Origin: Bacteroidales bacterium
GTDB taxonomy: Bacteria > Bacteroidota > Bacteroidia > Bacteroidales > UBA12481
Direction of reading: 5' to 3'
DNA: 64,000 bases
Assembly: GCA_041658425.1 (NCBI GenBank)
Contig: JBBAAF010000003.1
Coordinates: 14,267 to 78,266 of the forward strand
Shown in pieces: positions 2,740 through 57,592 of the stretch. The position numbers were made by a program, and so were the translations under genes. Every line of letters starts with the position of its first letter. Position 1 is the stretch's first letter. The notes beneath the pieces were generated by a model that did no database searches, had not been told where the DNA came from, and was given only the letters and a program-made list of their open reading frames with translations.

Positions 2740-4590
2740 TTATTTTACCCGCTTTCCTAATTCTGCAAGCGAAACGGTAATCATTTTGCCTGCAGGTTTC
2801 CCATCTCTATAAGTAATGACACGGAATGTATCAGCATCTTTCGGTATCGTCAGCTTTTCTCCATTCATATACATTGGACTATGATGGTCGGGATAGGTGT
2901 TATCGAAGGTGTAATACAATTTCAGCCCTTCAATTTCGGTACTCAGCTGTATGAATAAATTTCCCTTCCCATCTTTTGATGGTGCGATGATTGCATCATA
3001 AAAGCTGGTGGCATAGTTGATATCCGCCTGGGATAACCTTTGCAAATGGACTTCGGTGCGACGAATAAACTCAGTCCAATTCCTGAATGATTTTGGAGAC
3101 CATAGAACTTCTGCCAAGGCAAATGAGCGAGGCCAGAACATATACTCTGCCTGACGGAATGTGGGTACACTTTCTGTCCAGAGGTTTCCTTGCCCTCCCA
3201 GGATAAGCGAGGGATCCACACCTTCGGGAACAGGTTCGAAAGCATATACTTTATTCAAACGCAACATGCTATATGTCGGTGGCTCAATGGCAGGATCGCC
3301 CTGATACAAGTCGAGGTAAGCATAGTCGTTGGGGCTCATCACCACATGATGGTTTGCTTTAGCGGCTGCAATACCTCCTTTCATTCCACGCCAGCTCATT
3401 ACGGAAGCATTAGGTGCTAAACCCCCTTCCAAAATCTCATCCCAGCCCATCAATTTCTTTCCATTTTCCTGCAACATGGTCTCCAGACGATTTATGAAAT
3501 AACTTTGTAATTCATTCACATCCTTCAACCCATTATCTTTCATTCGTTTTTGGCAATCCTTACATTTTTTCCAAAAGCCTTTATAACATTCGTCGCCTCC
3601 AATATGAATGTATTCAAAAGGAAATAATTCGGCCACTTCGGTAAAGACGGTATTCAAAAACTCAAAAGTAGAGTCGTTCCCGGCACAAAGCGAGTTATCA
3701 TCAATTCCATAGAACTTACTGCCCGGATTTACCTGATAAATCAATTTCGAAGAAGACAAATAGGGATAAGCAGCTATAGCGGCTAAAGAGTGTCCGGGAA
3801 CATCTATTTCAGGTAGAATATTCACATAACGTTTTGCAGCATATTTGACAAGGTCTTTGATATCTTCCTGCGTGTAAAAACCACTATACGTAGCTTCTTC
3901 TCCTTCCTGGGGGCGTTCCCTTTCCCACCATAATCCTGTACGCGGCACTCTCCATGCTCCTACCTTAGTGAGTTCGGGCAGCTTTTTAATTTCTAACCTC
4001 CAACCCTGATCGTCGGTTAAATGCAGATGCAGGAGGTTAAATTTATATATCACCATCTGGTCAATAAGGCGCTTTACCTCATCAATAGTAAAGAAATGTC
4101 TGCTGACATCAAGCATCAATCCACGCCATGGAAAGCGGGGTTCATCTTTAATAATAAGGGATGGCACTTTTCTATCATCATTTATTGGAATAAGTTGAAT
4201 CAAACTTTGTACCCCATAGAACATGCCTTGGGAAGTGATGGCCCTGATACTTATTTCTTTCGGCGAAACGCTTAAAAGATATCCTTCCTTTGCTGTGTTT
4301 ACCGTTGAATCAAGTATTAAATTGATTGATTTTGCGGTTAATTTAATTCCACTTTGGATCTTTGCCTGCAATTGTAATTTATTCAGTGATTCTATAGTCG
4401 ACGCAGTGTAATCGGCAAGAAATTTTAATTTCTGATCATTATAACAAATTGGAGTTGACTCGTTTAAAATAAAATTTCCTTCTTTCATTTCAACCTTTTG
4501 GGGTTGAGGAATGATGCTAATGCTTTGGGCTGACAAAACCGCACCCAGGCAAAGCAGGGAAACTGATAATGACAATTTTTTGGAGTTCAT
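2740..4590 (-). CDS. Beta-N-acetylhexosaminidase, glycoside hydrolase family 20
   Basis: Signal peptide MNSKKLSLSVSLLCLGAVLSAQS. Classic GH20 motifs are present: RGLMLDVSRHFF, HLHLTDDQGWRLEIKK and YIHIGGDE. Confidence 0.92.
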   Translation of the reverse strand: MNSKKLSLSVSLLCLGAVLSAQSISIIPQPQKVEMKEGNFILNESTPICYNDQKLKFLADYTASTIESLNKLQLQAKIQSGIKLTAKSINLILDSTVNTAKEGYLLSVSPKEISIRAITSQGMFYGVQSLIQLIPINDDRKVPSLIIKDEPRFPWRGLMLDVSRHFFTIDEVKRLIDQMVIYKFNLLHLHLTDDQGWRLEIKKLPELTKVGAWRVPRTGLWWERERPQEGEEATYSGFYTQEDIKDLVKYAAKRYVNILPEIDVPGHSLAAIAAYPYLSSSKLIYQVNPGSKFYGIDDNSLCAGNDSTFEFLNTVFTEVAELFPFEYIHIGGDECYKGFWKKCKDCQKRMKDNGLKDVNELQSYFINRLETMLQENGKKLMGWDEILEGGLAPNASVMSWRGMKGGIAAAKANHHVVMSPNDYAYLDLYQGDPAIEPPTYSMLRLNKVYAFEPVPEGVDPSLILGGQGNLWTESVPTFRQAEYMFWPRSFALAEVLWSPKSFRNWTEFIRRTEVHLQRLSQADINYATSFYDAIIAPSKDGKGNLFIQLSTEIEGLKLYYTFDNTYPDHHSPMYMNGEKLTIPKDADTFRVITYRDGKPAGKMITVSLAELGKRVK

Positions 4591-4592
4591 AA

Positions 4593-5711
4593 TTAATTCT
4601 GATTTTTTACATAATTAAACGGCAAATTATTGTATGCACGAGTCAGAACAGCGATATTCCGTTCATCCCCTTTTAAACTATCAACAGGTCTGGAAAGATA
4701 ATAATCAACCGGCGGCATCAAAGAACCGATAACGGGTTTGGTAAAACCATAAAGCCCTACTTTTTCTTTAATGGCTGCAGGAATAACTTTGGCCGGATCT
4801 TGTCCATTCCAATTGGCCAGGCAGGTTACCAAACGGGTATGTTTGCCTAACATGGTACGCACGGATTCGGTGGTAGCAATATCGCCGGCTTCATTCAGCA
4901 CCCAATCCACTTCCTTCAGCATATCCGATCCTGCAATATCCTTGCTGGTCAGTTGACAGGATGTTAACCAGATAATGCAATCAGGTTTTGTTTTCTTCAC
5001 CGTTTCCCTGATCCTCTTCCAGCATCTGTCAATGGCTTTACGACGGAACTGGAGCTCAATTTCAGGAGTAATATTATCCTTTCCCGGGAATGGTTCATTC
5101 ATCAATTCACTGAACATTATCTGTTCGCAATCCATCCATTTTAAAGGCGGATATGGCTCCATGGTTGCACCGGGATTCCATAGCCAATCTACAAAAACAC
5201 CATCCATACCGGTCTTTTTTATGGCATCTTCCATGGCAGCACAAAGGTAATCAAGATACGGTTTAGTGTAAGGAATATGTGGGTTTGCAGGAAATCCATA
5301 GCTCAGATCGGGATGTTCCTGCCCCCATTTCGTGTTAGAGCCGGCACAAAAATAGCCAAACACTTTCATGTTTTTTTTATGCGCCAGTTTTACCTGTTCC
5401 GTCAGGAAATCATACTTGAGCCCGGGTTGCTCCGGAACAATACCGTTTTTATACCAGGCATAACCGTTGCATGATACGGCAAATGACTGAATGACGTTGC
5501 AACCAAGAGCTGCGTACCAGTTTACGTGATCAACGGGATTTGCATCGGACCATAAACCCGGTTGGGCAAAACCGTTCGGACCTCCTTCTCCCCAATTAAA
5601 ATCAACGCAGTAAGCTTTTATTAAACCTTCCTGTGTTTTTTTCGAATCACTTTTACAACTGCTAAAAAGTGCGATAAAAATTACTGCTATTATTATCCTG
5701 TTATTTTTCAT
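4593..5711 (-). CDS. Lipoprotein, putative TIM-barrel glycosidase-like protein (family not recognised)
   Basis: Lipobox ALFSSC at the N-terminus. Only a 2-nt gap separates it from the GH20 start, so the two are probably co-translated. Its N-terminal half loosely resembles the N-terminal halves of the 716-aa and 425-aa proteins in this locus (GH29/GH42-like barrel feel). This call is unverified. Confidence 0.7.
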   Translation of the reverse strand: MKNNRIIIAVIFIALFSSCKSDSKKTQEGLIKAYCVDFNWGEGGPNGFAQPGLWSDANPVDHVNWYAALGCNVIQSFAVSCNGYAWYKNGIVPEQPGLKYDFLTEQVKLAHKKNMKVFGYFCAGSNTKWGQEHPDLSYGFPANPHIPYTKPYLDYLCAAMEDAIKKTGMDGVFVDWLWNPGATMEPYPPLKWMDCEQIMFSELMNEPFPGKDNITPEIELQFRRKAIDRCWKRIRETVKKTKPDCIIWLTSCQLTSKDIAGSDMLKEVDWVLNEAGDIATTESVRTMLGKHTRLVTCLANWNGQDPAKVIPAAIKEKVGLYGFTKPVIGSLMPPVDYYLSRPVDSLKGDERNIAVLTRAYNNLPFNYVKNQN

Positions 5712-5792: not shown

Positions 5793-8700
5793 TTACCTGC
5801 TGATTATCAGTATTAATCCTTTTGAGGCCGGGATACTCAATTGTTTCACATTTGCCTCTCCGGCTGTTTGAAGATCGTCGATATTCGGGATTTCAACTTT
5901 TGCAGATGCAGGATTCATCCCCAGTTTCTTCCAATCTACATCTAAACTTATGACCTGGTGGGTATCCGACCAGTTGCCTATGGCTATCATTGCTTTATCT
6001 TTTTTGAGATAAACACTTGCCAGCAAATCATTATTACCGGTTTTTATAGGATTGGCATCATCCCAATAACCAATGTATTCTGAACCCGACATTCCAAAGT
6101 AATTCCATAATTTCCACATGTTCATGGGTTTGCAACCGCTATAATACCGGGTCGACATCCCATAGACCATGCCACGGTAAGGGTTGCCGCAGCCATCAAG
6201 CATTTCTCCGTATAAGCCTAAAGGAATTCCGGATATTTCAACTATCCAGTAATCCGGTTTCGTTGTTTTATAATCATACATTTCGCCCAGCCATAAGCTA
6301 TTAACATAAGGAAAAACTTCCATGCAATCATTGGCAGGACTATTTAATCCATAAGCTGGCTGAAAGGCATTACCAGAGTGAAAATCCATCAAACAGCTAT
6401 CTGCGGCTCTATCCATAGTCTTGCGCATGCGTTTCATTATTTCCCTGTCGTAACCTACTCCATCTAAATATAATCCACGTACGCCATAATTTCTTATCAG
6501 GAAGTTTAACCCTTCAATGTAATAATTATGCCAACGTGATAAGCCTTGCGTCCTTATTGACATATCCCAGTCAGGACCAACACTACGATCATGCCATGCA
6601 GGATCATAATTCGTACGAAGGTGTTCAAACAACCAGGAATGTCCCGTCATTCCATATATGCTGTTAGGATCTCTTTTTTCATGTGTATCAGCCAGGACTA
6701 ACACATTAGTACGGGAATATATCTCGTCATCAAGATGCCGCATTGCCCATAATTCACAGGCATTTGTGGACAATTCCCTGACTGTATAATACAATTTTGT
6801 CCTGATGTTAAGTATTTTTCCTTTATCAATTATCGATTTTAATGTATCTCCTGACAGAAACGGATAATTGATATAAGGATTATAAACATTCGCATGATGA
6901 ATATTCATTATGGTTGCTCCATTTTTAGCAGCTGTTACAGGATTATTATCAGCGTGGTAATATTTTTCGTTCCAATGCTTATCATCCAAGGTCTTAAAAG
7001 GGGTAATGAGAAGGCCAAAGTTTAAAACCATTACATCATCTTTTTTCATTGACTTGGCTCCCACATAGGCGGTAACAATTACTTCTTTTTCTGTGGAAGC
7101 AACATTGCAGCCTCCTTTCCCTTCATTGCTCCAATCCCTGTAGGGACCAACCTTTTCAAACGAAGCCAGCTTCCAATCAGGAATCAGATGTTTTAATTTT
7201 ACCTGCAAGCCCGCATTCACATCTCCCAGCCAGATCATATTATTGGCATATTCCTGATTCCATTTCCACTCCAGCTTTTCAGGAGTATAACCTCCCTGTT
7301 TCCCCATCCCCATCAGGTATTTTGCCGTTGATTTTTCGTAGGGTAGCACCAGTTGGACGTCATCTAAATTGATATCTTTTTTTGCTTTTATTTTCGTTTC
7401 ATAATTAATATATCCATCACATTCCATCTTAGCTTTTATGGTAATTTCGATATCTTCCGAACTTAAAACTGTTTGCCATACAACCGCACCACTTTTTTGC
7501 AGGATTATTTCCGGTTCTTTAGACGAAAATTTAATTAATTTTCCTTTTTGCAAAAGGTCGAGGTGAATTGATCCGGATAGGATATTCTTATCAGGCCCAT
7601 CAATGGAATGATTGCTGCCTGTAAAGGAGGTGGTTATTTTTTCAGGAAACCCCGATTTATTGAAACTTAATTTCCGCCCGAAGATGGATATATTTCTTCC
7701 GCTTAATTTTACCGGAGTGTAGGGCGCAACAACTTCATTGTCGATGCCGATATTCGAATCTAACCAATTCAACCGCGACTGATTTTGCGGTGTATTATAA
7801 CCTCTGTTTTCCGCAATTTTATTTTCTATTTGTAGTTTTACATCTATGACATAGCTCTTTGTACCTTTAGCTGATACTGCTACTTTCCCAAGATAAACTC
7901 CAGGAGCCTGATTTGCTTTTATATCAGATACTATCCACATGGACCGGACTTCACCTTTAGGGACTTTCACATTTTTTACAAACTTGTTACCTAAATGGTC
8001 ATTCCCTCCCATATTAATACATTTGAATGATTTAGAAGATAATATATCTCCTTTTTCAGATTTTAAATCGTAAAACGTTAATTTTAAATTATCTAATTCT
8101 TTGAACGGTGCAAAGATCCCCAATTGCCAGGAGTAGGATTCGTCCTTCATTGCACTTCCTTCAAATGCATTATTCGCCCCTTTTTTGAACCAGCGATAGG
8201 GTATGGTCTCTACCATTCGTGCAGGAAAATTCCTGTTCTCCGGGAAAATCAAAAACTCTTTATCCTGATTCTTATTCAATAATTCTTTCAATTCATTTTG
8301 AGTAACAGGTATTTCCATTGGATAAAAACTATGGTAATCGCTTTTACTTTCAAAAGAAATGATTTTTGCCAACTGACTGTCAATTTTATTGGCAGTACTG
8401 TTTTTCCAGGCAGGATCATACGTATCTGCCGGCTTCTCATAAGTGGCATCTGGGAACCACGACTTTCCGGTATTTCGTCCGGGCATATAATACAAATAGT
8501 AGTTGCCTTCGCCCGAAATCGGTTGAAATACTATCTCGCCAAATTCATTATTCTTTTGTGTGGAATAGATATTTTTTACCCGCAGATTGGTTAAGGCATC
8601 GATGAGAATCAGGTTTTTATCATCAACATTATCCAACCTGCGCCACGGAACAACTACTTTGACCGCATCTGAAGACTTTTCGACATAAATGACAGCACGA

Positions 8701-8813
8701 TGATTTCCAAGTCCTTCGGGATTCCATTGTCCGGTTCCATAACTAATATCCTGTCCATAAAACTGAAATAAGCTTAAAATAAGTGCCGTACTTATTAAAA
8801 TAATTGTTTTCAT
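5793..8813 (-). CDS. Large secreted glycosidase-like protein, possibly DUF6067 / GH123-like (DUF4091)
   Basis: Intact 1006-aa ORF with signal peptide MKTIILISTALILSLFQFYGQ. The N-terminal segment GLGNHRAVIYV...VVVPWRRLD recalls DUF6067-type proteins from memory only, so the family call is tentative. Confidence 0.75.
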   Translation of the reverse strand: MKTIILISTALILSLFQFYGQDISYGTGQWNPEGLGNHRAVIYVEKSSDAVKVVVPWRRLDNVDDKNLILIDALTNLRVKNIYSTQKNNEFGEIVFQPISGEGNYYLYYMPGRNTGKSWFPDATYEKPADTYDPAWKNSTANKIDSQLAKIISFESKSDYHSFYPMEIPVTQNELKELLNKNQDKEFLIFPENRNFPARMVETIPYRWFKKGANNAFEGSAMKDESYSWQLGIFAPFKELDNLKLTFYDLKSEKGDILSSKSFKCINMGGNDHLGNKFVKNVKVPKGEVRSMWIVSDIKANQAPGVYLGKVAVSAKGTKSYVIDVKLQIENKIAENRGYNTPQNQSRLNWLDSNIGIDNEVVAPYTPVKLSGRNISIFGRKLSFNKSGFPEKITTSFTGSNHSIDGPDKNILSGSIHLDLLQKGKLIKFSSKEPEIILQKSGAVVWQTVLSSEDIEITIKAKMECDGYINYETKIKAKKDINLDDVQLVLPYEKSTAKYLMGMGKQGGYTPEKLEWKWNQEYANNMIWLGDVNAGLQVKLKHLIPDWKLASFEKVGPYRDWSNEGKGGCNVASTEKEVIVTAYVGAKSMKKDDVMVLNFGLLITPFKTLDDKHWNEKYYHADNNPVTAAKNGATIMNIHHANVYNPYINYPFLSGDTLKSIIDKGKILNIRTKLYYTVRELSTNACELWAMRHLDDEIYSRTNVLVLADTHEKRDPNSIYGMTGHSWLFEHLRTNYDPAWHDRSVGPDWDMSIRTQGLSRWHNYYIEGLNFLIRNYGVRGLYLDGVGYDREIMKRMRKTMDRAADSCLMDFHSGNAFQPAYGLNSPANDCMEVFPYVNSLWLGEMYDYKTTKPDYWIVEISGIPLGLYGEMLDGCGNPYRGMVYGMSTRYYSGCKPMNMWKLWNYFGMSGSEYIGYWDDANPIKTGNNDLLASVYLKKDKAMIAIGNWSDTHQVISLDVDWKKLGMNPASAKVEIPNIDDLQTAGEANVKQLSIPASKGLILIISR

Positions 8814-8940: not shown

Positions 8941-9888
8941 TTACGGTTCCCTTAATGACCGGTTCATCTTCACCGATATTTCCATTCTATCCGAAGTCCA
9001 ACTATCTAAGAACACTTGCACATCTTGTTGATCAATGGAGGATGAAAATTCGAATTTTATGATTTTCTTATCTCCAGGCATCAGGGTAACGTAATTATCC
9101 GAATAGTGAACCGGAAGAATTCGTTTTCCGGTCCGCTTATCGAAAACTTTAACCCGGTTAAAAAAAGAGATGTTATCAAAAGCTGCCAGTTCTAAGGTAC
9201 CGGTGTAGTTACCACCTTCTTTGTTCAATTGTAAAGATGTTTTTGGTTTTGTTGCTGGAAGCTGCTCCAATTGAGAGTAATCTTTATCCTTGGTGGTCAG
9301 CCAGTAAATATTATCCGTTAACTGCACATTTTTATTAAACAAGGTCAGCTTTAAAAAATAGGCCCCATAAATGCCGGTTGGTTTTACTATTTCAAACATC
9401 GGACTTACAGTGTTCGAAAGTGCATCGCATTTATCGGACTTTTCCCAAATTATTTTCCCGTTCAAATTATATAGTTGAGCTTTAACTGTTAAGCCACTGT
9501 AGGATATGAGTGACGAGTTGAGCAGTTCAACTCGTTTGCTTATTAAGTTATACATAGGGTGCAGTGGTTCGCAGCCCTTTTTAGTTCCGTAAAGAGTGGC
9601 GTTGACTTCAATAGGAGCAGAGGTAAGTATATTCCCATCAACTTTGATCTCACTGGCACGCCTGGCCACCCAATTCTAGTGAAGCAATGTTTTTTCGCCG
9701 ATTGCCGGGAGCAACAGGGGCTCAATATTTTGTGCAAATAATGAACAGGTATTACACATAATCAAGCATAGAACCCAAAAAATTGATTGTTTTTTTAATC
9801 TCATTACGATGGGTTTACCGTATTTAGTAAAATTGTTCCAAAACAAAACAGGCTGTTCTTTTTGAAAGCTACCTTGTTTGCAAGACAA
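8941..9888 (-). pseudogene. GH2 (exo-beta-D-glucosaminidase/CsxA-like) remnant: signal peptide plus C-terminal Ig-like domain, catalytic core deleted, in-frame TAG
   Basis: The 70-aa ORF (signal peptide MRLKKQSIFWVLCLIMCNTCSLFAQ) and the 242-aa ORF are in the same frame (219 nt apart = 73 codons). They are separated only by TAG at 9676-9678: ...GEKTLLH*NWVARRASEIKVDGNILTS.... The distal part (DNIYWLTT, ISFFNRVKV, ILPVHYSDNYVTLMPGD) matches the C-terminal Ig-fold domain of GH2 glucosaminidases. No TIM-barrel region is present. Confidence 0.75.
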
Positions 9889-48438: not shown

Positions 48439-51212
48439 TTATACCCCCTGGAAGGTAAGGTTATGTGGAGCGTTATTTTATAATCCCGGCTGATTGTATA
48501 CTTCCGGGTTTTTCCATCGGGCTCACGCACATTTGCAGTATTGCTCAGCCCGGTATAATATACCGGAATCTGCAGAGTTCTGGTGATTTCTTGATTCAAA
48601 GGATTATAGAGCATTAACAATCCCTTTTCTTTACCTGAAGGATTCACATGCAAAAATCCGTCCCAGTCGCGGCCATCAGGGCGACGCAAATGAATAATGT
48701 CGGAATCGAGGATTTGACGATGTTCTTTATAAAAATCAACCCATTTTTTCACAACTGCTTTAGTTGAATCAGTATCGTACAACCGGGGACCGCGATAACA
48801 AGCCTGCACGCCGGCACCAAAAAGGTTGGCCAATCGCTGGTTGTAATGTTCCAGGTGTTCGTTCAACGGTTCAATAGTAGCTGCAGCGCCGCCCCCGTGA
48901 TATTGCGTCAGCGGTACAAACATCCATCCCATACTTGGAGTTTTGTCCCAGGTTCCTTCATAAATATTCTGGCGCTCGATAATCTCCTGCTGTACACGGG
49001 GAAGCGACCAGTTCACTTCCCGGTATCCCATGCCACATTTGGAAGATCCATTCAGATAATAGACATCCGGAACGTTTAAATAGATTCCTTTTGAACGGCA
49101 CCACTTATAAAAATCAGTGATGGTTTTGCGCTGGTTCCATTGCGAATCGCTAAGACCTTTGTGCCCGGGGTGTGTAGTTGAAGCGCACACGTCGCCGGGA
49201 TAGGAACCGTCGTGCTCGATTATGTCAAGCCCTGAAGATTCGTATAATTCATATATTTTACGGAAGTACTCCTGTCCCCACTCGCTGCCCAGACAGGGTG
49301 AATTTTCAAAAACAGCGAATCCCCCTGGTTTGCCTGTCTTCGGGTTAATAACATCATCCTTCTCACTGATTGAACGGCTGGCTAAAAGGCTGTATCCACC
49401 CAGGGCGATTCCTTTTGAATGGGCATAATCGGCATATTTTTTCATTTTTTGATAATAGGCCGGGTTACCGCTTTCCATATTAAACCCGCTGCCAAATGTC
49501 ATAATCACCATTTCAAATCCAACTTCGGCACATTGGTCAATGGCCAGTTTTACCGATGCCGAATCCGCTCTCAATACATGCATAAGTATCGGATTTTCAG
49601 TAACCCAGGGTGCTATGGTCCGGTACATCCTTCGCAGTGACAAGGATTTTCTCTCCCTTTCATAACTGTCGTAAAATAACTCCCAGGTATGGAATGATTC
49701 AAAACTTTTTCCGGTTTCGATCATCTGTTCCGGCCCCAATGGAGTTTGGACCTCAAGCAAGCAGGGCGTTGCAAGTTCCCAGCTGATCTGTGATGTATAG
49801 ATCGAATCCGGAACCCAGCTAACCACTTTTTCATAATCCGTTCTTCCACGGATAGCTGAGCCGTAATCCGTTTCTACATGAATATTCGGTTTCTCCCAGC
49901 CTGATTGTTCATCTTCCTCCGATTTCCCTTCCACCGCTGCAATGATTTCACTGGTATAACCGTTCAAAGTTACACTTTTACCTATCTGATTATCAATAGT
50001 TATCCACTTACTCATTAATGGGATTCCATCATAAATTTCATAATGCACCCTAACTTTAAGGCCTTTTAAATCGGATGGTTCAGCTTTTGAAAGGTCGGGT
50101 TCCCCAAATATTATAAAGTTCCGGACATGAGATCGTGTTAAATCTCCCTTCTTATTACCATCCCTCGCGTTCCCCGAACGACCCATTTTACCGATTCTGA
50201 CAAATTGCGGCTTTTCATTGACCGTAATCCTGCTAATCTCCTCCCATTTTTTTGAATCGGAAGAGATCTCACAAATAATCATGTTTCCGGCAACTGTCAT
50301 TTTTAAATAGTATGCTTTGCCATCTTCAGCTTTACCATAGCTGAATTCCTGTCCTAATGCCCCATTAAAAATTCCGAATTTTCCTTCTCCGGGACGAATG
50401 TTAAACTTGATCGTAAATGTTTGAAATACAAGTGCTATGCCGGGACCAAAGGTCACACCTTTGTCTGTGCCTGGATCAAAAAGGCATTGGACAACCTGGG
50501 CATCCGGTGGAAAGTCGCGTTCTGCAAAGCAAAAACTATTGGGAAGGGCCATTATTTCCCCGATCTTACCCTCATTGGTGAAGGATATACGTTCGTTTGC
50601 ACTGCTTTTCTGAATGCGCCAACCGGTATCCAGCTTCGTAAAATTATCCGAAAGCAATTCTTTCCGGGGAACTTCCAAAACATTATAATCAGGGGCTTTA
50701 AAATCGAGGATCAATTCAACTCCCTTCGGAGGCCAGGGCAAATCTTCAGGCATCCATTCCAACCGCTTTTTCCAGGGAAACCGCGGCTGAATATTGTTTA
50801 CGGAGTACCCGGTATATTCGAATGAGTTGGGCTCACTTTTAAGATCGTCGAGCCATTCGGGCAATAAGTAGCTATGAACAGGTTGCCCGGTTAACCCGCC
50901 AATAGTAAACTTGTGTCCGTCAACAATTATTTTTGCCTCAGGCCGCACAGACCTTAGATATTCCTGTGATGTGACAAAGTTTTTAATGCTGATGGTTGCC
51001 AGATTTGGTGCAATCCTGAACCGCCTTTCTATTAAACCGTTGGATAGTAGCAGTTCCTTTCCGTCTTTCGATTTTCCAGCTTTGGCAATGTAGTCTTTGC
51101 CGTTAATGAGCCAGTCATTTCTTTGTACATTATTTTCCGGCTTACATCTGCATAAACCAAACAGGGTAATACAGATTACCGCAAAAACGAAAGTCAATTT
51201 TCTTGAGTTCAT
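48420..51212 (-). CDS. Uncharacterised ~930-990 aa family, copy C (close paralogue of copy B)
   Basis: Collinear with copy B along its whole length, including the internal insert. The C-terminal third is nearly identical, for example ILDSDIIHLRR, EHDGSYPGDVC and HPGHKGLSDSQW. Confidence 0.85.
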   Translation of the reverse strand: MNSRKLTFVFAVICITLFGLCRCKPENNVQRNDWLINGKDYIAKAGKSKDGKELLLSNGLIERRFRIAPNLATISIKNFVTSQEYLRSVRPEAKIIVDGHKFTIGGLTGQPVHSYLLPEWLDDLKSEPNSFEYTGYSVNNIQPRFPWKKRLEWMPEDLPWPPKGVELILDFKAPDYNVLEVPRKELLSDNFTKLDTGWRIQKSSANERISFTNEGKIGEIMALPNSFCFAERDFPPDAQVVQCLFDPGTDKGVTFGPGIALVFQTFTIKFNIRPGEGKFGIFNGALGQEFSYGKAEDGKAYYLKMTVAGNMIICEISSDSKKWEEISRITVNEKPQFVRIGKMGRSGNARDGNKKGDLTRSHVRNFIIFGEPDLSKAEPSDLKGLKVRVHYEIYDGIPLMSKWITIDNQIGKSVTLNGYTSEIIAAVEGKSEEDEQSGWEKPNIHVETDYGSAIRGRTDYEKVVSWVPDSIYTSQISWELATPCLLEVQTPLGPEQMIETGKSFESFHTWELFYDSYERERKSLSLRRMYRTIAPWVTENPILMHVLRADSASVKLAIDQCAEVGFEMVIMTFGSGFNMESGNPAYYQKMKKYADYAHSKGIALGGYSLLASRSISEKDDVINPKTGKPGGFAVFENSPCLGSEWGQEYFRKIYELYESSGLDIIEHDGSYPGDVCASTTHPGHKGLSDSQWNQRKTITDFYKWCRSKGIYLNVPDVYYLNGSSKCGMGYREVNWSLPRVQQEIIERQNIYEGTWDKTPSMGWMFVPLTQYHGGGAAATIEPLNEHLEHYNQRLANLFGAGVQACYRGPRLYDTDSTKAVVKKWVDFYKEHRQILDSDIIHLRRPDGRDWDGFLHVNPSGKEKGLLMLYNPLNQEITRTLQIPVYYTGLSNTANVREPDGKTRKYTISRDYKITLHITLPSRGYNWYVIY

Positions 51213-51241: not shown

Positions 51242-52519
51242 TTACCTGACTTTTCCGAGTTTTTTACCGACAGCCTTAATCTGTTCCAGGTGATGCGGAA
51301 GGATTTCTCCTGTGGCTTCAGGTACCACTTCGAGACATAATACTCCCTCATTTTTTACAATTTCTTCTGCCATTCCGGTCAGTTTTTCAGTTTCAAATTG
51401 TTGTCCTTTTCCACCCCATTTCTCTCCCAGATAGGTGAATAAAAACCACTGTACACCATCTGCAACCCATCTGCCTGATGGAAACTCATCAATTGTACTC
51501 TTTTCTCCGGAACTGTAATCGCAATAGGGTGTATTGACCTTAATTTTTCCAAAACCGCTGTTATAGGTTACGATACTATTCTTATTGCCAGCTTTTGCTG
51601 CAAGAGTGTGCGTACTGATATTATGTTTAAGCGACATATCCATTCGTGTACTCCTGATGGCATTCCACGAATATAAACCATCAAACCACCACCCTTTGAC
51701 ACCATTACCATACCTCAGGCTCCATTCCCTGATCATATCTTCCAGGATAGGCTGGTTATATTGACTGGTCGCTGAGTCTTTTTTATATGGATATTTGAAT
51801 TTCTCCGACACCAGTTTGTTTCTCACTGGAGGATTACTGGGCAGATATAATATTAACGGAATATTGTACTTTTTTAGCTCTTTCATTAAATCCATCGGCA
51901 AATCGCGTTTTGAGCATAAATCTCCTGGTTTTACCCCGACAGCGCTGTCAAAGGCTGAGTTAGGGGAACAGTAATAACCGGAATTTTGCCCAAGTGTAAA
52001 CATCACATACCCAACACCTGCTTCATTGGCCTGATTGGTAAATTTTTCAACATTGAAGCTATTCACTGCATCATTCCACTCCTTTGCACCACCATCAGGA
52101 GTAAAGACCTCCTTTAAAAAGTGAACCATGATGCCAAAACCAGCATCCCGGAACCAGTCGGTGTTGGGATTTCCTTTGTATTCGATAGGTTTTGAGGATA
52201 TTACGGAGGTAGTAATTCTTTCATCACCATCGTTTACCTTGCAGGATATTTCGCATTTAAGATATTTGTCGACATAAGAAGTCAGCAATACAATCTCGTT
52301 GGTCCAGATACCCTGAAGCTTTTCCCATCCACCATCCGGAGACGGAGCGATATACCAGCAATACTCCGTTTCTTGTACATTATTTGGCAGTTTACATTCT
52401 ACACCTACCACATTTTTTGCAATCAGCTCGCCTTCAAGCGTCACGTTTTTTATCTCCTTATTCTGACAAGAAATGACAGGTAAAAGGATACACATTAATA
52501 ATAAACTGTTTATTTTCAT
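51242..52519 (-). CDS. Lipoprotein, GH29-like/fucosidase-superfamily-like barrel with N-terminal Ig-like module (family unverified)
   Basis: Lipobox LPVISC. The segment DWFRDAGFGIMVHFL resembles the GH29 start-of-barrel motif. This is the first gene after the susD terminator. Confidence 0.65.
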   Translation of the reverse strand: MKINSLLLMCILLPVISCQNKEIKNVTLEGELIAKNVVGVECKLPNNVQETEYCWYIAPSPDGGWEKLQGIWTNEIVLLTSYVDKYLKCEISCKVNDGDERITTSVISSKPIEYKGNPNTDWFRDAGFGIMVHFLKEVFTPDGGAKEWNDAVNSFNVEKFTNQANEAGVGYVMFTLGQNSGYYCSPNSAFDSAVGVKPGDLCSKRDLPMDLMKELKKYNIPLILYLPSNPPVRNKLVSEKFKYPYKKDSATSQYNQPILEDMIREWSLRYGNGVKGWWFDGLYSWNAIRSTRMDMSLKHNISTHTLAAKAGNKNSIVTYNSGFGKIKVNTPYCDYSSGEKSTIDEFPSGRWVADGVQWFLFTYLGEKWGGKGQQFETEKLTGMAEEIVKNEGVLCLEVVPEATGEILPHHLEQIKAVGKKLGKVR

Positions 52520-52620: not shown

Positions 52621-52651
52621 AAAAGCCTCTCGTTTTTAACGAGAGGCTTTT
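52621..52651 (-). terminator. Strong intrinsic (rho-independent) terminator downstream of susD
   Basis: AAAAGCCTCTCGTT-TTT-AACGAGAGGCTTTT is a perfect 14-bp stem with core GCCTCTCG and a 3-nt loop. On the minus strand it is followed by TGTTTTAGC (T-rich). It lies 59 nt after the susD stop. Confidence 0.8.
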
Positions 52652-52709: not shown

Positions 52710-54491
52710 TTATTTCAATGGATCAAAAGCGCCTCCCCAGGTATTGTTCTGCTCAATTTTGCTGTTACGCTCAAGAATAGCTTTTGGAATACCAAAGAAT
52801 GAATACTTGTCTTCATCCAGCACGACTACTTTTGCATATCCATTGATAACCGATGCAGAGAACTGATCCAAGACGGTATTGATATCCGTTAACCTATCCG
52901 GAGCGTTTGCAGTTGGTCCGTTCCATTCCATTCTTAAACCATGAAGGTAGCTATCCTTCAGAGCGTTCATTGTGGAAGTAAAGATACGCCACCTGCGCAG
53001 ATCCCAGAAACGTTTCCCTTCAAATGCGAACTCAACGAAACGTTCGTCCTGAATGGCTTTTCTGATATCAGCAGCAGATGAGGCAGTGACCCCATAAGTT
53101 GGACCATCAATACCCGCCCTCTGGCGGATTTTGTAAAGGACATCGAGAGCTTCAGCGGTTTTGCCGGTTTCATTGGCAGCTTCAGCCATGTTCATCAGCA
53201 CCTCGGCATAACGGATCTCGATCCAGTCAACCTGTCCGTCTTCAACAGTTGTTCTGGTGATAGTCTGATCCATCATTTTTGCAGGGTAAAAACCGGAATG
53301 GGAAAATAAATTCTCAGCACCAGTTCCGAATACCGATTTGTTAGCTGCACTTGCTTCTTTACCGTTGATACCGGTTGCCGCGTTGTTGTCAAGATCATAG
53401 AAATAGGTCCACATGTTTTCATTCCCGAACATTGGTGAAATAAAAGGAGCTGACCCGTTATAGGCGATCGAAGCATAAAAACGCCCTTCCCTGTTTTGGA
53501 AGAATGTCTTGTAATCCATTGTTGCCGGGTCCCATTTCGAACCGTCTTTCATGGCATAAGCATCTACTAACTCCAGGGTCGGATAATTTGATCCGACACA
53601 ACCCCTTGCATAAAGCAACGGGCGCATGCAGGCCTGAGAGTAACCATTGGCGAAACTGGGGTATTGGTACCTTCTTACCATGATAACCTCCTTGTTCATT
53701 TCGTCGAGCCACAGTTCCCTGTATTTGCTGTATAAGCCTTTACCCTGTGCATCCAGGAATGCCAAAGCTGCTTTGTTGGCCTCATAGGCTGCAGTCCAAC
53801 GCGCAACATCATTGGTACGGTTAAACTGGGGGCTGGCCCAGTACAACAGAACCCGGCCTTTGAATGACATGCCCACGCACTTGTCAACGCGTCCGATTAC
53901 GCTTTTGTTCTCCAATAATTCGATGGCAGCATCAAGATCCTTTAAAATTTGCGTCATGCAGGCGGATGTCGAACTCCGGGGGATAAAAGTAGCCTCAATA
54001 TTTGCAGGGTCTCCCGGTTCCAAAACCAGTTCGACACCGCCATAGGCTTTAACTGCCGCGAAGTAAACCCATGCACGCCAGAAAAGCATCTGACCTTTCA
54101 GTGATTGTTTATTGGCATCGGCAAAAGTTGCTGCGTCTATCCCGGCAAGGAATATGTTTATCCTTCTGATAACAGCATAGTTGTCATAACCATTATACGT
54201 ATCAACGGTCATGCTTCCCTTGAGGTAAGCCGATAATCCGTCGCCTCCGTTGACATCGTTTGACTGGTCGTCCCATCTGGGCGTATTCCAGTCGGCAGGC
54301 ATTAAACTTCCGTAAATGTCATTCACATAAGCTTCCGCCACAGCAGGATTTCCCCAGACGTCCTCGGTTTGAATGGCCCCCAGATTCTCTTTACTGAGAG
54401 GATCGCATCCTATAAAACATAGCAGTATAAACACACTACCAATTAATCTCTTTAATGTTTTCATATTTTTATTATTATAAAATATTAACAA
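52710..54491 (-). CDS. susD: SusD/RagB-family nutrient-binding outer-membrane lipoprotein
   Basis: The likely start is MKTLKRLIGSVFILLCFIGC (lipobox) at about 54464. Motifs RYAEVLMNMAEAANE and IQDERFVEFAFEGKRFWDLRRW are present. It lies immediately downstream of susC. Confidence 0.93.
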   Translation of the reverse strand: MLIFYNNKNMKTLKRLIGSVFILLCFIGCDPLSKENLGAIQTEDVWGNPAVAEAYVNDIYGSLMPADWNTPRWDDQSNDVNGGDGLSAYLKGSMTVDTYNGYDNYAVIRRINIFLAGIDAATFADANKQSLKGQMLFWRAWVYFAAVKAYGGVELVLEPGDPANIEATFIPRSSTSACMTQILKDLDAAIELLENKSVIGRVDKCVGMSFKGRVLLYWASPQFNRTNDVARWTAAYEANKAALAFLDAQGKGLYSKYRELWLDEMNKEVIMVRRYQYPSFANGYSQACMRPLLYARGCVGSNYPTLELVDAYAMKDGSKWDPATMDYKTFFQNREGRFYASIAYNGSAPFISPMFGNENMWTYFYDLDNNAATGINGKEASAANKSVFGTGAENLFSHSGFYPAKMMDQTITRTTVEDGQVDWIEIRYAEVLMNMAEAANETGKTAEALDVLYKIRQRAGIDGPTYGVTASSAADIRKAIQDERFVEFAFEGKRFWDLRRWRIFTSTMNALKDSYLHGLRMEWNGPTANAPDRLTDINTVLDQFSASVINGYAKVVVLDEDKYSFFGIPKAILERNSKIEQNNTWGGAFDPLK

Positions 54492-54496: not shown

Positions 54497-57400
54497 TTAG
54501 AATGTAATATTTGCACCCATTGTAAAGGATTTCATCGTAGGATATGATCTCATCTCAGAACCGCTGGGGTCAAAATAATCAAATTTCGTCATGGTGAATA
54601 AATTAGTTCCTGACAGTATTAAAGTTACATCAGCAATTTTAATTTTTTGACAAAGACTTTTTGGGAGCGAGTAGGTAAAGTTCAAATATTGCAACCGTAG
54701 GTAACTGCTATTTTTTAACCAGAAAGTTGATTCCAGGTGGTCCATACTCCGGTCCCAGGTAATTGGTCTTGGGTAAGCCGCATCAGTATTATCCGGTGAC
54801 CATGAATCCAGCCAGAATGAGGGTGGCCTTGCGCCGTCGAAGAACCTTCTGCCGTATCCGTCGTTATAGAATTTTGATACGCCGGTGATTCCCTGCAGAA
54901 ATACGTCAATTCCAAATCCTTTCCAGTTAACGCTGAGATTTAACCCAACCATATAGGGAGCCAAAGCGTGTGACCCTTCAATGATTTGCCGGTCATAGCT
55001 GTCGATCTTGCCGTCAGCAACCCCGTCGGTAACGCCGCTGACATCCTCAAAATTGATCATACCCAGTTTTGGCTTCAGACCATAAATGGTATAACCTGCG
55101 GGAAGTGCATCAAGATCAGCCTGGGTGCGGATGATATCCGTAGCAACGAGGCACCTGATATAATCGGTCGACTTGCCGTTAGGATCATCAAGGGCACGGA
55201 CGTTCTGAGCCACGTCGCGCAGGATAACCTTATTCACTGAATATCCGAAGTTACCCTTTATCTGATAGGAGAAATCTCCTTTATTGCCAACGTAGCCTAA
55301 CTCGAGTTCAACTCCTTGACCATCAACTATACCATAGTTTACAGGTGGCATGGCTCCTCCAAAAGAATTCGGTAAAGACAATATCCTGGAATCAAGGATA
55401 TCATAGTTGTGCCTCTTGTAATACTCTGCACTGAACATGATGCCCTTTAAAAAGCGTGCGTCAATACCCACGTTCAATTCACTGGTTTTTTCCCAGGTCA
55501 GGTCTGGATTTATAATACCACTGTATCTGACACGAGGCTGCGCTGCGGTACCCAATAAGTAATCACCGGCTGTTGCAAAGGATTCACTCCATCTCCATCC
55601 CCCGACAGCATCATTCCCGGCTAATCCCCAGGAAGCACGCAGTTTTAAGTCATCAATAAAGCTTACTTTAAAGAAATTCTCTCTTGATAACATCCAGCCT
55701 GCTGAAACGGAAGGGAATGTTCCCCAACGTTTATCAGGGGCAAACAGCATGGATCCGTCGCGACGGGCTGTGGCATTGATAAAGTATTTATCACCAAAAC
55801 TATAGGCCAGCCTTCCGATAAAAGATGCACGGCCAAATTCACTTTCAGTTCCGCTAACCTGTCCATCGGTTCTTGCAGCGGATGTTGCCCAGAACTGGTC
55901 CTTTTGTAACAGTGGGAATCCTTCTCTCAAGCCATAGAAATAATCGTAGTTGCCTTCACTTTGCTCATAAACCAAAACGGCATTAATATCGTGCTGCCCA
56001 AATTTCTTGGCATAATTTGCAGCAAAGTTCAACTGATAACTTTGGGTTGCTTCCTGAACCCTTACTAATCTCTCTTTATTCGGATAGGCTGATTTTATCG
56101 TTCCTGTGATCTCGTCGGTATAGATGGCGCTGTTTGTACCGAGTTTTTTTACCTGGTATAAAGTGGTTTTAAGTTCGTACTGTTTCATGGTCATGCCTGC
56201 ATATTTTGGGGCAAATTTTCCTGAAACAGACAATCCGTCAACAAATGGGATATTATACGTTAACCCGAGCAACATATCTACGTTGCGTTCGATACGGGTA
56301 TTCATACCACCTTCTTCAACAAATGCCAGCATGTTTCCGATCCAGCCCGGATCGATGAACTTTCCATCTTTTGTTTTCGGTGGCACAGTAGGCAGGTAAT
56401 ATAATAAACGTCCCCAAAGAGCACCAAAATCTGCGTTTGTATCAAAACCGACGTTATCTTCCTGCATAACGAACCTTGTTTTTGTTCCCTGGCTATAGGC
56501 CACATTGAAGATACCCTTCAGATTCTTGGTAAAATCAACATCGATATTGGAGCGGAAGGTGTATCTCTGGTAATCTGCATTTTTGATGAAGGCGGTTTGA
56601 TCGAAGAAAGTACCGGCAAGGAAATATTTAACCTTATCGGTTCCTCCGGATGCGGTAAGGGAATGTTTTTGTAAGGTAGGATCCTTATAAGCTAAAGTAT
56701 ACCAGGCTCTTGCGGGGTCGTTTTCATTAAAGAAAGCAACTTCCTGAGCATCATACGCCGGTGGTAAATTTTCGTTTGCCCGGGCATCATTCATCAGTCT
56801 GACCATATCCTTTGCATCGACATAAGAAGGTATCTTTGAAGGCTGGTCAAAACTGTATGAGTAGTTGTAATTCAGCTGGAATTTGCCAACGTTCCCTGTT
56901 TTGGTGGTTACCAGGATAACCCCGTTAGCAGCCCGGGCACCATAAATAGCTCCCGAAGCGGCATCTTTCAAAACAGTGATATTGTCCACCGCGGAAACAT
57001 CCAATGCATCAAACGCCCGTTTATCGGAAACAATACCGTCTATGACATAAAGCGGATCAAGACCGGTACTTTTCCAGGTGTTAATGGCACGTACCCGGAT
57101 GGATGCGGCAAATCCCGGGGCACCTGATCTCTGGGTCACATATACTCCGCTCAACCGGCCGGCCAGGGTATTGGACAGTGCGGGTACAGGTATGAACTTA
57201 ACATCTTCAGCCTTCATCGAGGTGAGTGCACCTGTGACTGATGATTTTTTCTGGGTTCCGTATCCGACCACCACAACTTCTTCGAGTGATACAGCCTCCG
57301 TCTGAAGTGTGACATTGATTACAGAACTGTTTCCAACTGCCACTTCCTGTGTAGTGTAGCCTACGAAGCTGACCACTAAGGTGGCACCAGTCGTAGGAAC

Positions 57401-57592
57401 AGTAATGGTATACTTACCATTGGCATCGGTTGTTGCCCCAGTCTGCGTCCCTTTCACGACAATATTTGCACCAGGAACCGGCTGCCGGTCTTGGTCAGTG
57501 ACAGTTCCGGTTACTGTTCTCTGAGCATAAATACCGGCGGTACTTACGATTGAGAACATAAGCAATAGAAATACTTTTAGTAATGTTTTCAT
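54497..57592 (-). CDS. susC: SusC/RagA-family TonB-dependent outer-membrane transporter
   Basis: Signal peptide; carboxypeptidase-regulatory-like domain TVTGTVTDQDRQPVPGANIVVKG; plug region VVVVGYGTQKKSSVTGA; C-terminal ...MGANITF. There is no N-terminal STN (anti-sigma signalling) extension. Confidence 0.95.
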   Translation of the reverse strand: MKTLLKVFLLLMFSIVSTAGIYAQRTVTGTVTDQDRQPVPGANIVVKGTQTGATTDANGKYTITVPTTGATLVVSFVGYTTQEVAVGNSSVINVTLQTEAVSLEEVVVVGYGTQKKSSVTGALTSMKAEDVKFIPVPALSNTLAGRLSGVYVTQRSGAPGFAASIRVRAINTWKSTGLDPLYVIDGIVSDKRAFDALDVSAVDNITVLKDAASGAIYGARAANGVILVTTKTGNVGKFQLNYNYSYSFDQPSKIPSYVDAKDMVRLMNDARANENLPPAYDAQEVAFFNENDPARAWYTLAYKDPTLQKHSLTASGGTDKVKYFLAGTFFDQTAFIKNADYQRYTFRSNIDVDFTKNLKGIFNVAYSQGTKTRFVMQEDNVGFDTNADFGALWGRLLYYLPTVPPKTKDGKFIDPGWIGNMLAFVEEGGMNTRIERNVDMLLGLTYNIPFVDGLSVSGKFAPKYAGMTMKQYELKTTLYQVKKLGTNSAIYTDEITGTIKSAYPNKERLVRVQEATQSYQLNFAANYAKKFGQHDINAVLVYEQSEGNYDYFYGLREGFPLLQKDQFWATSAARTDGQVSGTESEFGRASFIGRLAYSFGDKYFINATARRDGSMLFAPDKRWGTFPSVSAGWMLSRENFFKVSFIDDLKLRASWGLAGNDAVGGWRWSESFATAGDYLLGTAAQPRVRYSGIINPDLTWEKTSELNVGIDARFLKGIMFSAEYYKRHNYDILDSRILSLPNSFGGAMPPVNYGIVDGQGVELELGYVGNKGDFSYQIKGNFGYSVNKVILRDVAQNVRALDDPNGKSTDYIRCLVATDIIRTQADLDALPAGYTIYGLKPKLGMINFEDVSGVTDGVADGKIDSYDRQIIEGSHALAPYMVGLNLSVNWKGFGIDVFLQGITGVSKFYNDGYGRRFFDGARPPSFWLDSWSPDNTDAAYPRPITWDRSMDHLESTFWLKNSSYLRLQYLNFTYSLPKSLCQKIKIADVTLILSGTNLFTMTKFDYFDPSGSEMRSYPTMKSFTMGANITF

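Follow-up and report, generated by a model that had tools for sequence, protein, structure and literature searches.

Polysaccharide utilization loci (PULs) are well known as a kind of system, and large PULs with hypothetical proteins are common. In the present study, we analyzed a 64,000-nt stretch of DNA from a Bacteroidales bacterium (contig JBBAAF010000003.1, positions 14,267 to 78,266; the whole stretch is hereafter called the window), which contains a 55-kb PUL; about a third of the protein length of this PUL appears to belong to glycan-cleaving enzymes of uncharacterized families. What is new in this PUL is its content and a smaller backbone PUL inside it that recurs in other genomes.

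Several described systems come close to this locus. The rhamnogalacturonan-II (RG-II) PUL of Bacteroides thetaiotaomicron has 22 enzymes (PMC12282258). Like the window locus, it is a SusC/SusD-led same-strand array of exported glycosidases and esterases with many linkage-specific exo-enzymes, several members of which lacked a prior family until that PUL was characterized. Unlike it, the window is without a regulator, is a mosaic with pseudogenes, and lacks the pectin-type families, namely polysaccharide lyases (PL), the glycoside hydrolase (GH) families GH28, GH95 and GH137-143, and an intact GH78. The fucoidan PULs of marine Planctomycetota and Verrucomicrobiota combine exo-fucosidases with accessory enzymes of the GH109, GH172, GH116 and GH115 types (PMC11685898). 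The backbone families of the window, GH29, GH109, GH172 and a GH116-like family, correspond to this accessory set, but the window contains neither a sulfatase nor a recognizable endo-fucanase (GH107, GH168, GH174), and it adds enzymes directed at N-acetylhexosamine (HexNAc) and mannose. The N-glycan apparatus of B. thetaiotaomicron with GH163 (BT1035; PMC10570127) shares with the window a DUF4838 gene in the company of GH20, GH29, GH2-type and mannosidase genes. Finally, ExoMA1 (GH172, PDB 8ic8) and ExoMA2 (GH116, PDB 8ic6) of Microbacterium arabinogalactanolyticum, an exo-alpha- and an exo-beta-D-arabinofuranosidase, respectively, have counterparts in the GH172 of the window and in a family of 860-aa proteins whose profile matches 8ic6; the window, however, has no GH183 endo-arabinanase, and its context is fucose-rich rather than that of mycobacterial arabinan. 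In our literature search, no described PUL with this combination of families was found, and none was found for DUF6807, PF19543 or URO-D in PULs.

Results

A conserved backbone PUL has been expanded by inserted genes

The ORF (open reading frame) table shows that genes lie on the minus strand throughout positions 2740-57592, from susC (57592) to a GH20 gene (2740), with 26 intact genes and 4 decayed loci; all features given below are on the minus strand unless stated otherwise. The run consists of 28 ORFs of at least 150 aa and two remnants within the 1.2-kb gap at 43760-44959, that is, 30 loci. This 55-kb, 30-locus single-strand organization, with its 26 intact and 4 decayed members, had been proposed by a model that saw only the letters and their ORFs (hereafter the sequence-only reading), and it was confirmed by the ORF listing and by reading-frame checks. 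Three plus-strand ORFs (17585-18439, 42252-42935 and 43119-43736) sit inside high-GC genes and are shadow ORFs. The median intergenic gap is 33 nt, 20 of the 27 gaps being 70 nt or shorter, and a run of 28 consecutive same-strand neighbors would arise by chance with a probability of only about 2^-27. An adjacent pair of susC (54497..57592; 1031 aa, a TonB-dependent transporter with CarbopepD_reg_2 and Plug domains) and susD (52710..54491; a 593-aa lipoprotein matching SusD_RagB at E 4e-46 and SusD-like_3), 5 nt apart, heads the array, and at least 15 of the co-oriented genes encode members of recognized GH or esterase families with signal peptides. The region is a genuine Sus-like PUL of an uncultured Bacteroidota bacterium.

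Comparison with the closed metagenome-assembled genome (MAG) OW818689.1 (GCA_942493325.1; loci L165/L166) revealed a PUL with which about 12 genes of the window are collinear, at 53-87% amino-acid identity. Its order, in which X and Y denote families without a Pfam model that are treated below, starts with SusC (82%), SusD (77%), a short X (82%), FucP (87%) and GH109 (85%), continues with a URO-D-like protein (81%), Y (77%), X (53%), a GH29-like protein (54%) and GH29 (81%), and ends with a SASA-GH172 fusion (77%), the 860-aa family (81%), a second GH172 and the 419-aa family (62%). The same order is found in the window, with two exceptions: its GH29-like gene directly follows susD, and its 419-aa gene directly follows the 931-aa X gene. 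The order thus defined is interrupted by GH151, two pseudogenes and GH38; by a 528-aa protein and DUF4838; by the 993-aa X; by a third family, Z, with GH36 and DUF6807; and by a GFO oxidoreductase, a GH2 pseudogene, PF19543, GHL6 and GH20. An esterase is also extra, with homologues in loci L001, L054 and L035 and none in the stretch of the OW818689.1 PUL examined. In that same stretch, neither GH151, GH38, the 528-aa protein, DUF4838, the 993-aa X and Z, nor GH36, DUF6807, GFO, PF19543, GHL6 and GH20 were present, while the fusion, the second GH172 and an STN-type N-terminus of SusC (a weak match) are features of its own. The OW818689.1 PUL is itself uncharacterized. Base composition differs between the two sets of genes: the backbone genes have a GC content of 0.40-0.46, versus 0.385-0.555 in the extra genes, among which GH38 (0.555), the 528-aa protein (0.526), Z (0.51), DUF4838 (0.504) and GFO (0.499) stand high. 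The locus is accordingly a conserved smaller PUL expanded by about a dozen inserted genes, many of deviating GC.

Other genomes hold further subsets. A related contig (L001), with its own SusC/SusD, carries GH43/32-like, DUF4838, PF19543, X, 419-aa, 860-aa, esterase, GH29-like and again X genes, 78-88% identical to those of the window, and there too the 419-aa homologue (88%) follows X. Dyadobacter has a version comprising SusCD, a PF19543-like protein, GH172, X, Y and a GH109-like protein; Echinicola has SusCD, Y and X; Maribellus has SusCD, Y, GH29 and X; and additional subsets occur in Draconibacterium, a Saprospiraceae MAG and a Tannerella MAG. The system is therefore not unique, as the conserved backbone recurs in other genomes and parts of it occur in separate PULs, and because relatives hold parts of the gene set in separate PULs, the locus may serve more than one glycan. 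The suggestion of the sequence-only reading that this is an undescribed system stands insofar as no described PUL was matched in the literature; what it had taken for one system turned out to be an expanded mosaic of a smaller recurrent PUL. The record names of the closest relatives point to a freshwater-lake habitat.

The four decayed loci lie inside the array. The GH2 remnant (8941..9804) matches Ig_GlcNase and Mannosidase_ig; its signal peptide is followed by 17 aa and then by a stop at 9676-9678, past which nothing but the C-terminal Ig domains remains. In the SGNH/GDSL esterase pseudogene (21357..22034; Lipase_GDSL_2), a single in-frame stop at 21465-21467 removes the catalytic DGIH block. 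A frameshift disrupts the GH43/32-like pseudogene (44266..44919), which retains a 148-aa N-terminal ORF with a signal peptide, while residues 182-337 of the intact L001 gene, which carries Glyco_hydro_32N/43, align in another frame at 51% identity. Next to it lies a fourth copy of X (44003..44236), reduced to a 78-aa internal piece with 57% identity to residues 735-812 of the 931-aa paralogue. Because the homologue of the GH43-like pseudogene directly follows susD in L001 and the pseudogene adjoins the X fragment here, these two remnants plausibly mark a recombination scar.

Proteins outside every sequence model tested have glycosidase-like predicted folds

Seven intact proteins, of 827, 860, 419, 931, 528, 817 and 930 aa, have no Pfam match at all, and the sole domain match of the 993-aa protein is the accessory Laminin_G_3; together, these eight dark proteins account for 37% of the length of intact coding sequence. 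NCBIfam provided no usable name for any of them, and PDB sequence searches with concatenated sequences gave no match for X, Y, Z or the 528-, 419- and 404-aa proteins, nor, among the dark proteins, any match named 2-O-methyl-fucosidase. The sequence-only reading had listed ten large proteins for which it could name no family. Seven of the ten stay unassigned by Pfam, NCBIfam and PDB sequence searches; the other three were placed by the Pfam models and PDB sequences, the 716-aa protein as GH151, the 1006-aa protein as PF19543 and the 372-aa protein as GHL6, and the dark 419-aa protein had been missed. The ten are not independent either, as the remaining seven form four groups, in each of which the fold or a domain resembles that of glycosidases. 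Thus, four or five conserved and widespread groups with glycosidase-like predicted folds fall outside every sequence model tested.

Family X is encoded by three intact genes. The 930-aa protein (48420..51212), with no Pfam or NCBIfam match, is 64% identical to the 931-aa paralogue (29385..32180), which likewise has no Pfam match, and both share 38% identity over 580 aa with the 993-aa protein (25077..28058), which carries the extra N-terminal Laminin_G_3. At least 1500 homologues without a precomputed Pfam domain were found, named ‘hypothetical’ or in a few cases ‘alpha-galactosidase’ (UniRef), and a scan of one genome per species yielded at least 586 X-encoding stretches. Among the best 80 of these at least 586 loci, which are the basis of all X-centered context counts here and come from Bacteroidota, Verrucomicrobiota, Planctomycetota, Lentisphaerota, Armatimonadota and Spirochaetota, the most frequent neighbors of X are SusC in 16, SusD in 15, S1 sulfatases in 15, FecR in 11 and GH172 in 9. 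The presence of S1 sulfatases beside X in these 15 loci, which belong to other taxa, is a likeness to the fucoidan PULs; unlike the X loci of other phyla, the window has neither an S1 sulfatase nor FecR.

The AlphaFold2 (AF2) model of the 931-aa X (predicted local distance difference test, pLDDT, of 79) is closest to the GH36 structures 2xn0, 3mi6 and 4fnq (Foldseek E 7e-20 to 1e-17, template modelling (TM) score 0.4-0.5), followed by GH97 and then GH27. As in GH36 and GH101, the model predicts an N-terminal beta-sandwich, a (beta/alpha)8 barrel and a C-terminal beta-sandwich, the three-domain fold of GH36, and a jelly-roll domain is inserted in addition. Enzymes of clan GH-D carry their Asp nucleophile where barrel strand 4 ends and their Asp acid/base where strand 6 ends. 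In X, D669 is conserved in 84 of 84 sequences from several phyla, D717 in 83 of 84 and E733 in 83-84 of 84; D669 and D717 follow the predicted strands 663-667 and 710-712 in the numbering of the model, and may lie where clan GH-D has its nucleophile and acid/base. On this pattern of conservation, D669, D717 and E733 are candidate catalytic residues of X. The structural matches to GH36 and GH101 share just 8-13% identity with X and Y, and the Pfam GH27/GH36 models are silent. At the sequence level, X has no match to Pfam Melibiase/GH36 at E 0.01, and its profile reaches only the GH27 structure 6f4c in the PDB, at E 0.27. Two length forms of X were also observed, a long one of ~930 aa (as at 48420-51212) and a short one of ~735 aa (L166:1376-3595 and L010:10001-12193), from which a large portion of the N-terminal half appears to be missing, the ~190-residue jelly-roll (model residues ~180-370) among it. 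The two forms are 82-87% identical over their common part, and the change is therefore recent.

Family Y is represented by an 817-aa protein (35833..38286), predicted to have a TIM-barrel, alpha-glycosidase-like fold, and has at least 2193 homologues, all named ‘hypothetical’. It gave no Pfam, NCBIfam or PDB-sequence match, even when a 20-sequence profile was used at E 5, so that neither GH101 nor GH36 is reached by sequence; its AF2 model (pLDDT 76, predicted TM score 0.77), for which the same arrangement of sandwich, barrel and sandwich is predicted, is closest to the GH101 enzyme EngBF (2e-12) and the GH36 enzyme FpGalNase (1e-10), with TM scores of just 0.24-0.41. An assignment of Y to GH139 was rejected, given that GH139 is an (alpha/alpha)6 GH95-like toroid (PMC12282258), versus a TIM barrel in the model of Y. 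Among 80 Y-centered metagenome loci, GH95-like genes occurred in 7, GH29 in about 7-9 and X in 3-4. X and Y are frequent PUL residents amid fucosidase-rich surroundings; that they form an obligate pair was rejected, as they are co-localized in only about 5-8% of loci.

Family Z (16202..18685, 827 aa, GC 0.51) appears to combine an N-domain resembling those of GH20b, GH67N and GH115 with a barrel, shows no Pfam match above threshold and has at least 2490 homologues, essentially all named ‘hypothetical’ except for some variants named ‘malectin domain-containing’; its profile gave weak PDB matches only, to the N-domains of GH20 and GH115. Many Z homologues are ~960 aa long with a C-terminal malectin domain (PF11721), some with an N-terminal SGNH domain as well, and the Z of the window has neither. 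The 528-aa TIM-barrel protein (34225..35811, GC 0.526) has no Pfam match and lacks an N-domain. Its family comprises 325 representative clusters among 1.84 billion proteins, and its members usually carry a GH67N-like N-domain, with GH67N itself detected in 7 of 37. The family profile reaches BtGH115A (7e-8) and GH67 (6e-5) almost solely via this N-domain, that is, via the part that the 528-aa protein of the window does not have. The Z and 528-aa families are homologous in profile comparison (hhalign probability 98.8%, E 9e-17), which places them in one superfamily with a GH115/GH67-like N-domain as judged from these profiles. A relationship of Z/528 to DUF4838 was rejected, as hhalign gave no significant result.

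The 860-aa protein (18755..21337), without a Pfam match, is distantly GH116/GH15-like: a four-sequence profile of its family gave a local match of ~90 residues to the GH116 exo-beta-D-arabinofuranosidase 8ic6 (E 1.5e-5), and TIGR01577 matched at E 5e-10 with 38.5 bits against a cutoff of 820. In OW818689.1, SASA-GH172, the 860-aa family and GH172 stand in a row (L166:15598-22426), pairing GH172 with the GH116-like family as do the arabinofuranosidases of M. arabinogalactanolyticum. The GH172/860-family neighborhood hints at a furanoside sub-module. The 419-aa protein (28086..29345) stays fully dark: it matches only a twin-arginine translocation (TAT) signal, and it has no family and no NCBIfam or PDB match.

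Genes of recognizable family

Hidden Markov model (HMM) and PDB-sequence searches confirmed the families that the sequence-only reading had named, GH20, GH29, GH109, GH38, GH172 and two esterases, and gave sharper names to two more: its ‘clan GH-D’ gene is a GH36 (1zy9, 2e-15), and its ‘FHS permease’ is FucP (3o7q, 9e-40). Nearly all non-transport products carry Sec, lipoprotein or TAT signals, with TAT signals on GH109, the GFO oxidoreductase and the 419-aa protein.

A divergent GH29-like alpha-L-fucosidase lipoprotein of 425 aa (51242..52519) matches Alpha_L_fucos (E 6e-16) and PDB 9pnj (E 5e-10). FucP (47128..48438), a 436-aa L-fucose:H+ symporter-like permease of the major facilitator superfamily (MFS), also matches MFS_1. 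The 716-aa GH151 alpha-L-fucosidase (44959..47109) aligns with PDB 6tvk at E 9e-42 over residues 52-716, essentially the full length, and contains GHL6, Alpha_L_fucos and Glyco_hydro_42M domains. The 458-aa GH29 alpha-L-fucosidase (23687..25063) has its best match in PDB 3gza (E 2e-102) and matches the alpha-1,3/4-fucosidases 3ues and 3mo4 at E 4e-41. A 372-aa GHL6 lipoprotein (4593..5711; PF14871, E 4e-14) shows weak similarity to GH151.

Among the remaining enzymes, the 991-aa GH38 alpha-mannosidase (40785..43760; Glyco_hydro_38N and 38C) is a compositional outlier, with a GC of 0.555 and a third-codon-position GC (GC3) of 0.643 versus 0.444 for the whole window. The 436-aa NAD-dependent GH109 glycosidase (39408..40718) has a TAT signal with the motif RRGFL and joins a Rossmann GFO_IDH_MocA domain (PF01408, E 2e-13) to the C-terminal Glyco_hydro_109_C (PF21252, E 5e-50). 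The 514-aa GH172 (DUF2961; 22135..23679) matches PF11175 at E 4e-52 as well as PDB 4kq7, 7v1v and 8ic8, and the 813-aa GH36-like alpha-galactosidase/GalNAc-ase (13727..16168) matches PDB 5m0x, like 1zy9, at E 2e-15, with a Pfam Melibiase score under threshold. The GH20 beta-hexosaminidase (2740..4590, 616 aa) matches Glyco_hydro_20 at E 3e-118. A 658-aa lipoprotein (32192..34168, GC 0.504) has the DUF4838 domain (PF16126, E 1e-30), the Pfam family of GH163 and GH185 (PMC10570127), and unlike BT1035 it is without an F5/8 domain. The 1006-aa protein (5793..8813) matches PF19543 (‘GH123_N’) with 1150 bits over residues 29-1005, a model that has been mapped to GH123 (PMC13355591). Its profile reaches the GH123 structures 5fqe, 5l7r and 8k2f only via the N-terminal beta-sandwich (residues 220-333, E 8e-6 to 2e-4), and its barrel region gave no significant profile match to solved GH123 enzymes. 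An alpha/beta-hydrolase esterase lipoprotein of 406 aa (11409..12629) matches DLH, Peptidase_S9 and AXE1.

Two further genes may have oxidative roles. The TAT-exported GFO/IDH/MocA oxidoreductase (9986..11341, 451 aa), recognized by Pfam, matches PDB 8tdf (E 6e-37), 8tdh (5e-35) and, more weakly, 8tdi, a glucuronide-3-dehydrogenase. The gene lies two genes downstream of that of the 344-aa DUF6807 lipoprotein (12687..13721; PF14100, E 3e-31), with the esterase between them; the two genes are directly adjacent in L010 and co-occur in L044. An oxidative role of the pair is a lead that comes from PDB names alone.

Between GH109 and Y lies a gene for a cytoplasmic URO-D/MtaA-like protein (38309..39388; URO-D, E 2e-7). 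The 404-aa ORF predicted here, with a TTG start and a 116-nt overlap with GH109, is over-extended; the better start at 39388 gives 359 aa, as in homologues. Matches to the MtaA/CmuA subfamily are weak, with NCBIfam scores far under the cutoffs. An HSCG motif is invariant in 5 homologues, with no conserved downstream Cys, and no corrinoid-protein gene partner was found in the locus. The gene adjoins a GH109-like gene in the window and in L054, L055/L166 and L063, and a link of this pairing to O-methyl sugar processing is one possibility raised by the gene neighborhood.

Boundaries and expression signals

On the 5′ flank of susC, positions 57965-60439 contain the C-terminal fragment of a GH78 rhamnosidase (311 aa, GC 0.53), an insertion sequence (IS) fragment consisting of a truncated DUF4372+DDE_Tnp_1 (IS4-like) transposase, and a fragment of HamA of the Hachiman defense system. 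Insertions appear to have reshaped this end of the PUL, where no regulator is left. Past this flank, at 61003-63984, an ADP-ribosylglycohydrolase gene (minus strand) and a gene for a beta-propeller/transglutaminase-core protein (plus strand) are unrelated to glycan use.

At the other edge, positions 14-2647 on the plus strand encode part of a 948-aa protein without a Pfam match, and on an identical contig (L167:11944-20319) an 825-aa protein, also without a Pfam match, and then a second PF19543 protein of 878 aa lie past it. Because these proteins follow there, the dark island of carbohydrate-active enzyme (CAZyme)-like genes extends past the 2740-57592 locus.

A terminator-like hairpin (52621..52651), whose perfect 14-bp stem precedes a T run, is located within the 190 nt that separate susD from the next gene and is the sole strong intergenic hairpin across the 55 kb. 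In PULs, an excess of transporter over enzyme transcript is usual, and a terminator after susD fits this pattern; the hairpin probably acts as an attenuator by which the transporter and the enzyme genes are expressed separately. The Bacteroidetes promoter motif TAnnTTTG has no exact match upstream of susC, a sigma-70 promoter scan gave only background levels, and Rfam and tRNA scans returned no matches.

Discussion

On balance, the locus is probably a composite one for the periplasmic exo-deconstruction of an acetylated, fucose-rich heteroglycan, with its range widened by accretion. From the observed gene content, homology, synteny and mosaic composition, and from the modelled folds, we infer which substrate is used, what X, Y, Z and the 528-, 860- and 419-aa proteins do, and that the genes of the locus are co-expressed. 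The substrate would be a branched, acetylated, L-fucose-rich heteroglycan, a focus on fucose being evident in three fucosidases (GH29, GH29-like and GH151) together with FucP, and in the enrichment of Y neighborhoods in other genomes for GH95-like and GH29 genes. SusC/SusD would import its oligosaccharides, and the exported products, located in the periplasm or at the surface, would break them down residue by residue, mostly as exo-acting, linkage-specific enzymes. In such a scheme, fucose caps would be removed by GH29, the GH29-like protein, GH151 and perhaps GHL6, and alpha-linked Gal/GalNAc by GH109, GH36 and, by fold analogy, probably X and Y, which are placed here because their predicted folds resemble those of retaining alpha-galactosidases and alpha-GalNAc-ases. 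GH20, DUF4838 and PF19543 would act on beta-HexNAc, GH38 on alpha-mannose, GH172 and the GH116-like 860-aa protein on furanosides, and the esterases on acetyl groups, with the GFO oxidoreductase and DUF6807 providing a possible oxidative route. FucP would take released fucose into the cell. A modified sugar that is imported may be the target of the cytoplasmic MtaA-like protein, a step for which we offer pure conjecture. The sugars that had been proposed from the recognizable enzymes alone, fucose, HexNAc, alpha-Gal/GalNAc, mannose, furanosides and acetyl, are reasonable given the confirmed families. By analogy with the fucoidan PULs, backbone families without a sulfatase or endo-fucanase would fit an unsulfated freshwater algal or cyanobacterial fucose-rich polymer.

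Several observations weigh against this interpretation. Four of the 30 loci are pseudogenes, hence part of the locus is decaying. No regulator (hybrid two-component system (HTCS), extracytoplasmic function (ECF) sigma/anti-sigma pair or SusR), a usual member of PULs, was found in the window, and of the ~16 kb by which the 80-kb contig exceeds these 64 kb only a part was seen. Two substrate classes fit, with a backbone that resembles a fucoidan accessory set and additions that resemble an N-glycan set; therefore, one locus may not mean one substrate. As for the dark families, the comparison of X with the GH36 of the locus gave an hhalign probability of 2.5%, and X was rejected as a GH36 at the level of sequence profiles; a relation of X to Y at profile level was likewise rejected, as hhalign was not significant. 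Both AF2 models are of medium confidence, and several segments of Y are of low confidence (pLDDT below 50), two of which, 495-505 and 531-564, overlap its most conserved motifs. X and Y occur together in just 6 of the 80 X-centered and 3-4 of the 80 Y-centered loci.

A bolder extension of the same interpretation, possible but held only tentatively, is that the backbone represents a widespread undescribed class of PUL for a fucose/furanoside, possibly O-methylated, algal or cyanobacterial heteroglycan, that X, Y, Z/528 and the 860- and 419-aa families would found up to five new GH families, and that the MtaA-like protein would process a modified sugar.

Alternatively, the region could be no single functional system at all, but a CAZyme island fused or shuffled from at least two ancestral PULs, partly decaying, serving several unrelated glycans or none, and with its regulator lost. 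The separate PULs of relatives, each with its own SusC/SusD (L001 versus L165/L166), the plausible recombination scar formed by the GH43-like pseudogene and the X fragment, a per-gene GC that ranges from 0.385 to 0.555, and the four internal pseudogenes with flanking GH78 and IS fragments and no regulator in the window are all consistent with such an origin. However, 26 long ORFs of up to 1031 aa are intact, the single-strand spacing is tight with the usual post-susD hairpin as the only strong one, the dark families show conservation between phyla, including acidic residues that do not vary, and the backbone order is kept at 53-87% identity. We regard a partly defunct fused island as unlikely, and retain the composite, fucose-directed PUL as the preferred interpretation.

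Quite unlikely, in our estimate, is a PUL dedicated to eukaryotic N-glycans (complex or paucimannose, with Lewis-type fucosylation, from plant, algal or animal glycoproteins), as an environmental counterpart of the complex N-glycan apparatus of B. thetaiotaomicron in which the dark proteins would handle unusual decorations. The founding member of GH163, whose domain is DUF4838, cleaves GlcNAc-beta1,2-Man in complex N-glycans (PMC10570127), and GH38, GH20, a GH2 remnant with mannosidase-type Ig domains and a GH29 near alpha-1,3/4-fucosidases keep it company in the window; in Gaoshiqia hydrogeniformans, moreover, X lies between PNGase-like (N-glycanase_C), DUF4838+F5/8 and GH38 genes. Yet GH38, DUF4838, GH20 and the GH2 pseudogene are additions that all lie outside the backbone, three of them being compositional outliers or decayed; unlike BT1035, the DUF4838 protein of the window has no C-terminal F5/8 domain; the window contains no GH18, GH85, GH92, GH130 or PNGase; and GH172, GH109, GH36, the GH116-like protein and three copies of X have no established role on N-glycans.

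An assembly chimera of several metagenome genomes, so that the 30 genes would not share one cell, is extremely improbable: it would account for the strong gene-to-gene variation in GC within a metagenome contig of 80,186 bp, but contig k141_89551 of ENA analysis ERZ27247322 (MEGAHIT-style; 100% identity over 22,976 bp and 14,590 bp, pseudogenes included) and Logan contigs of SRR8449812 are identical across the high-/low-GC junctions and the pseudogenes, in assemblies that may share reads and whose independence is not proven, and reading frames, signal peptides and short gaps are intact at each junction.

The composite, fucose-directed PUL matters in two respects. First, the locus shows how a PUL grows, with a conserved core extended gene by gene with enzymes of foreign GC, leaving pseudogene scars. 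Second, its value lies in a well-delimited and tractable list of candidate new GH families. For families X, Y and Z, no Pfam model covers the catalytic region, and sequence searches lead to no relative of solved structure. As parts of the system are carried by the cultured Gaoshiqia hydrogeniformans, Maribellus luteus, Dyadobacter sp. 32 and Echinicola salinicaeni, the question of the substrate is experimentally tractable. If X, Y and Z are glycosidases, which is suggested by the folds predicted for them, by their export signals and by the genes around them, a single assigned activity would annotate thousands of genes, and this gain in annotation would concern the turnover of environmental glycans.

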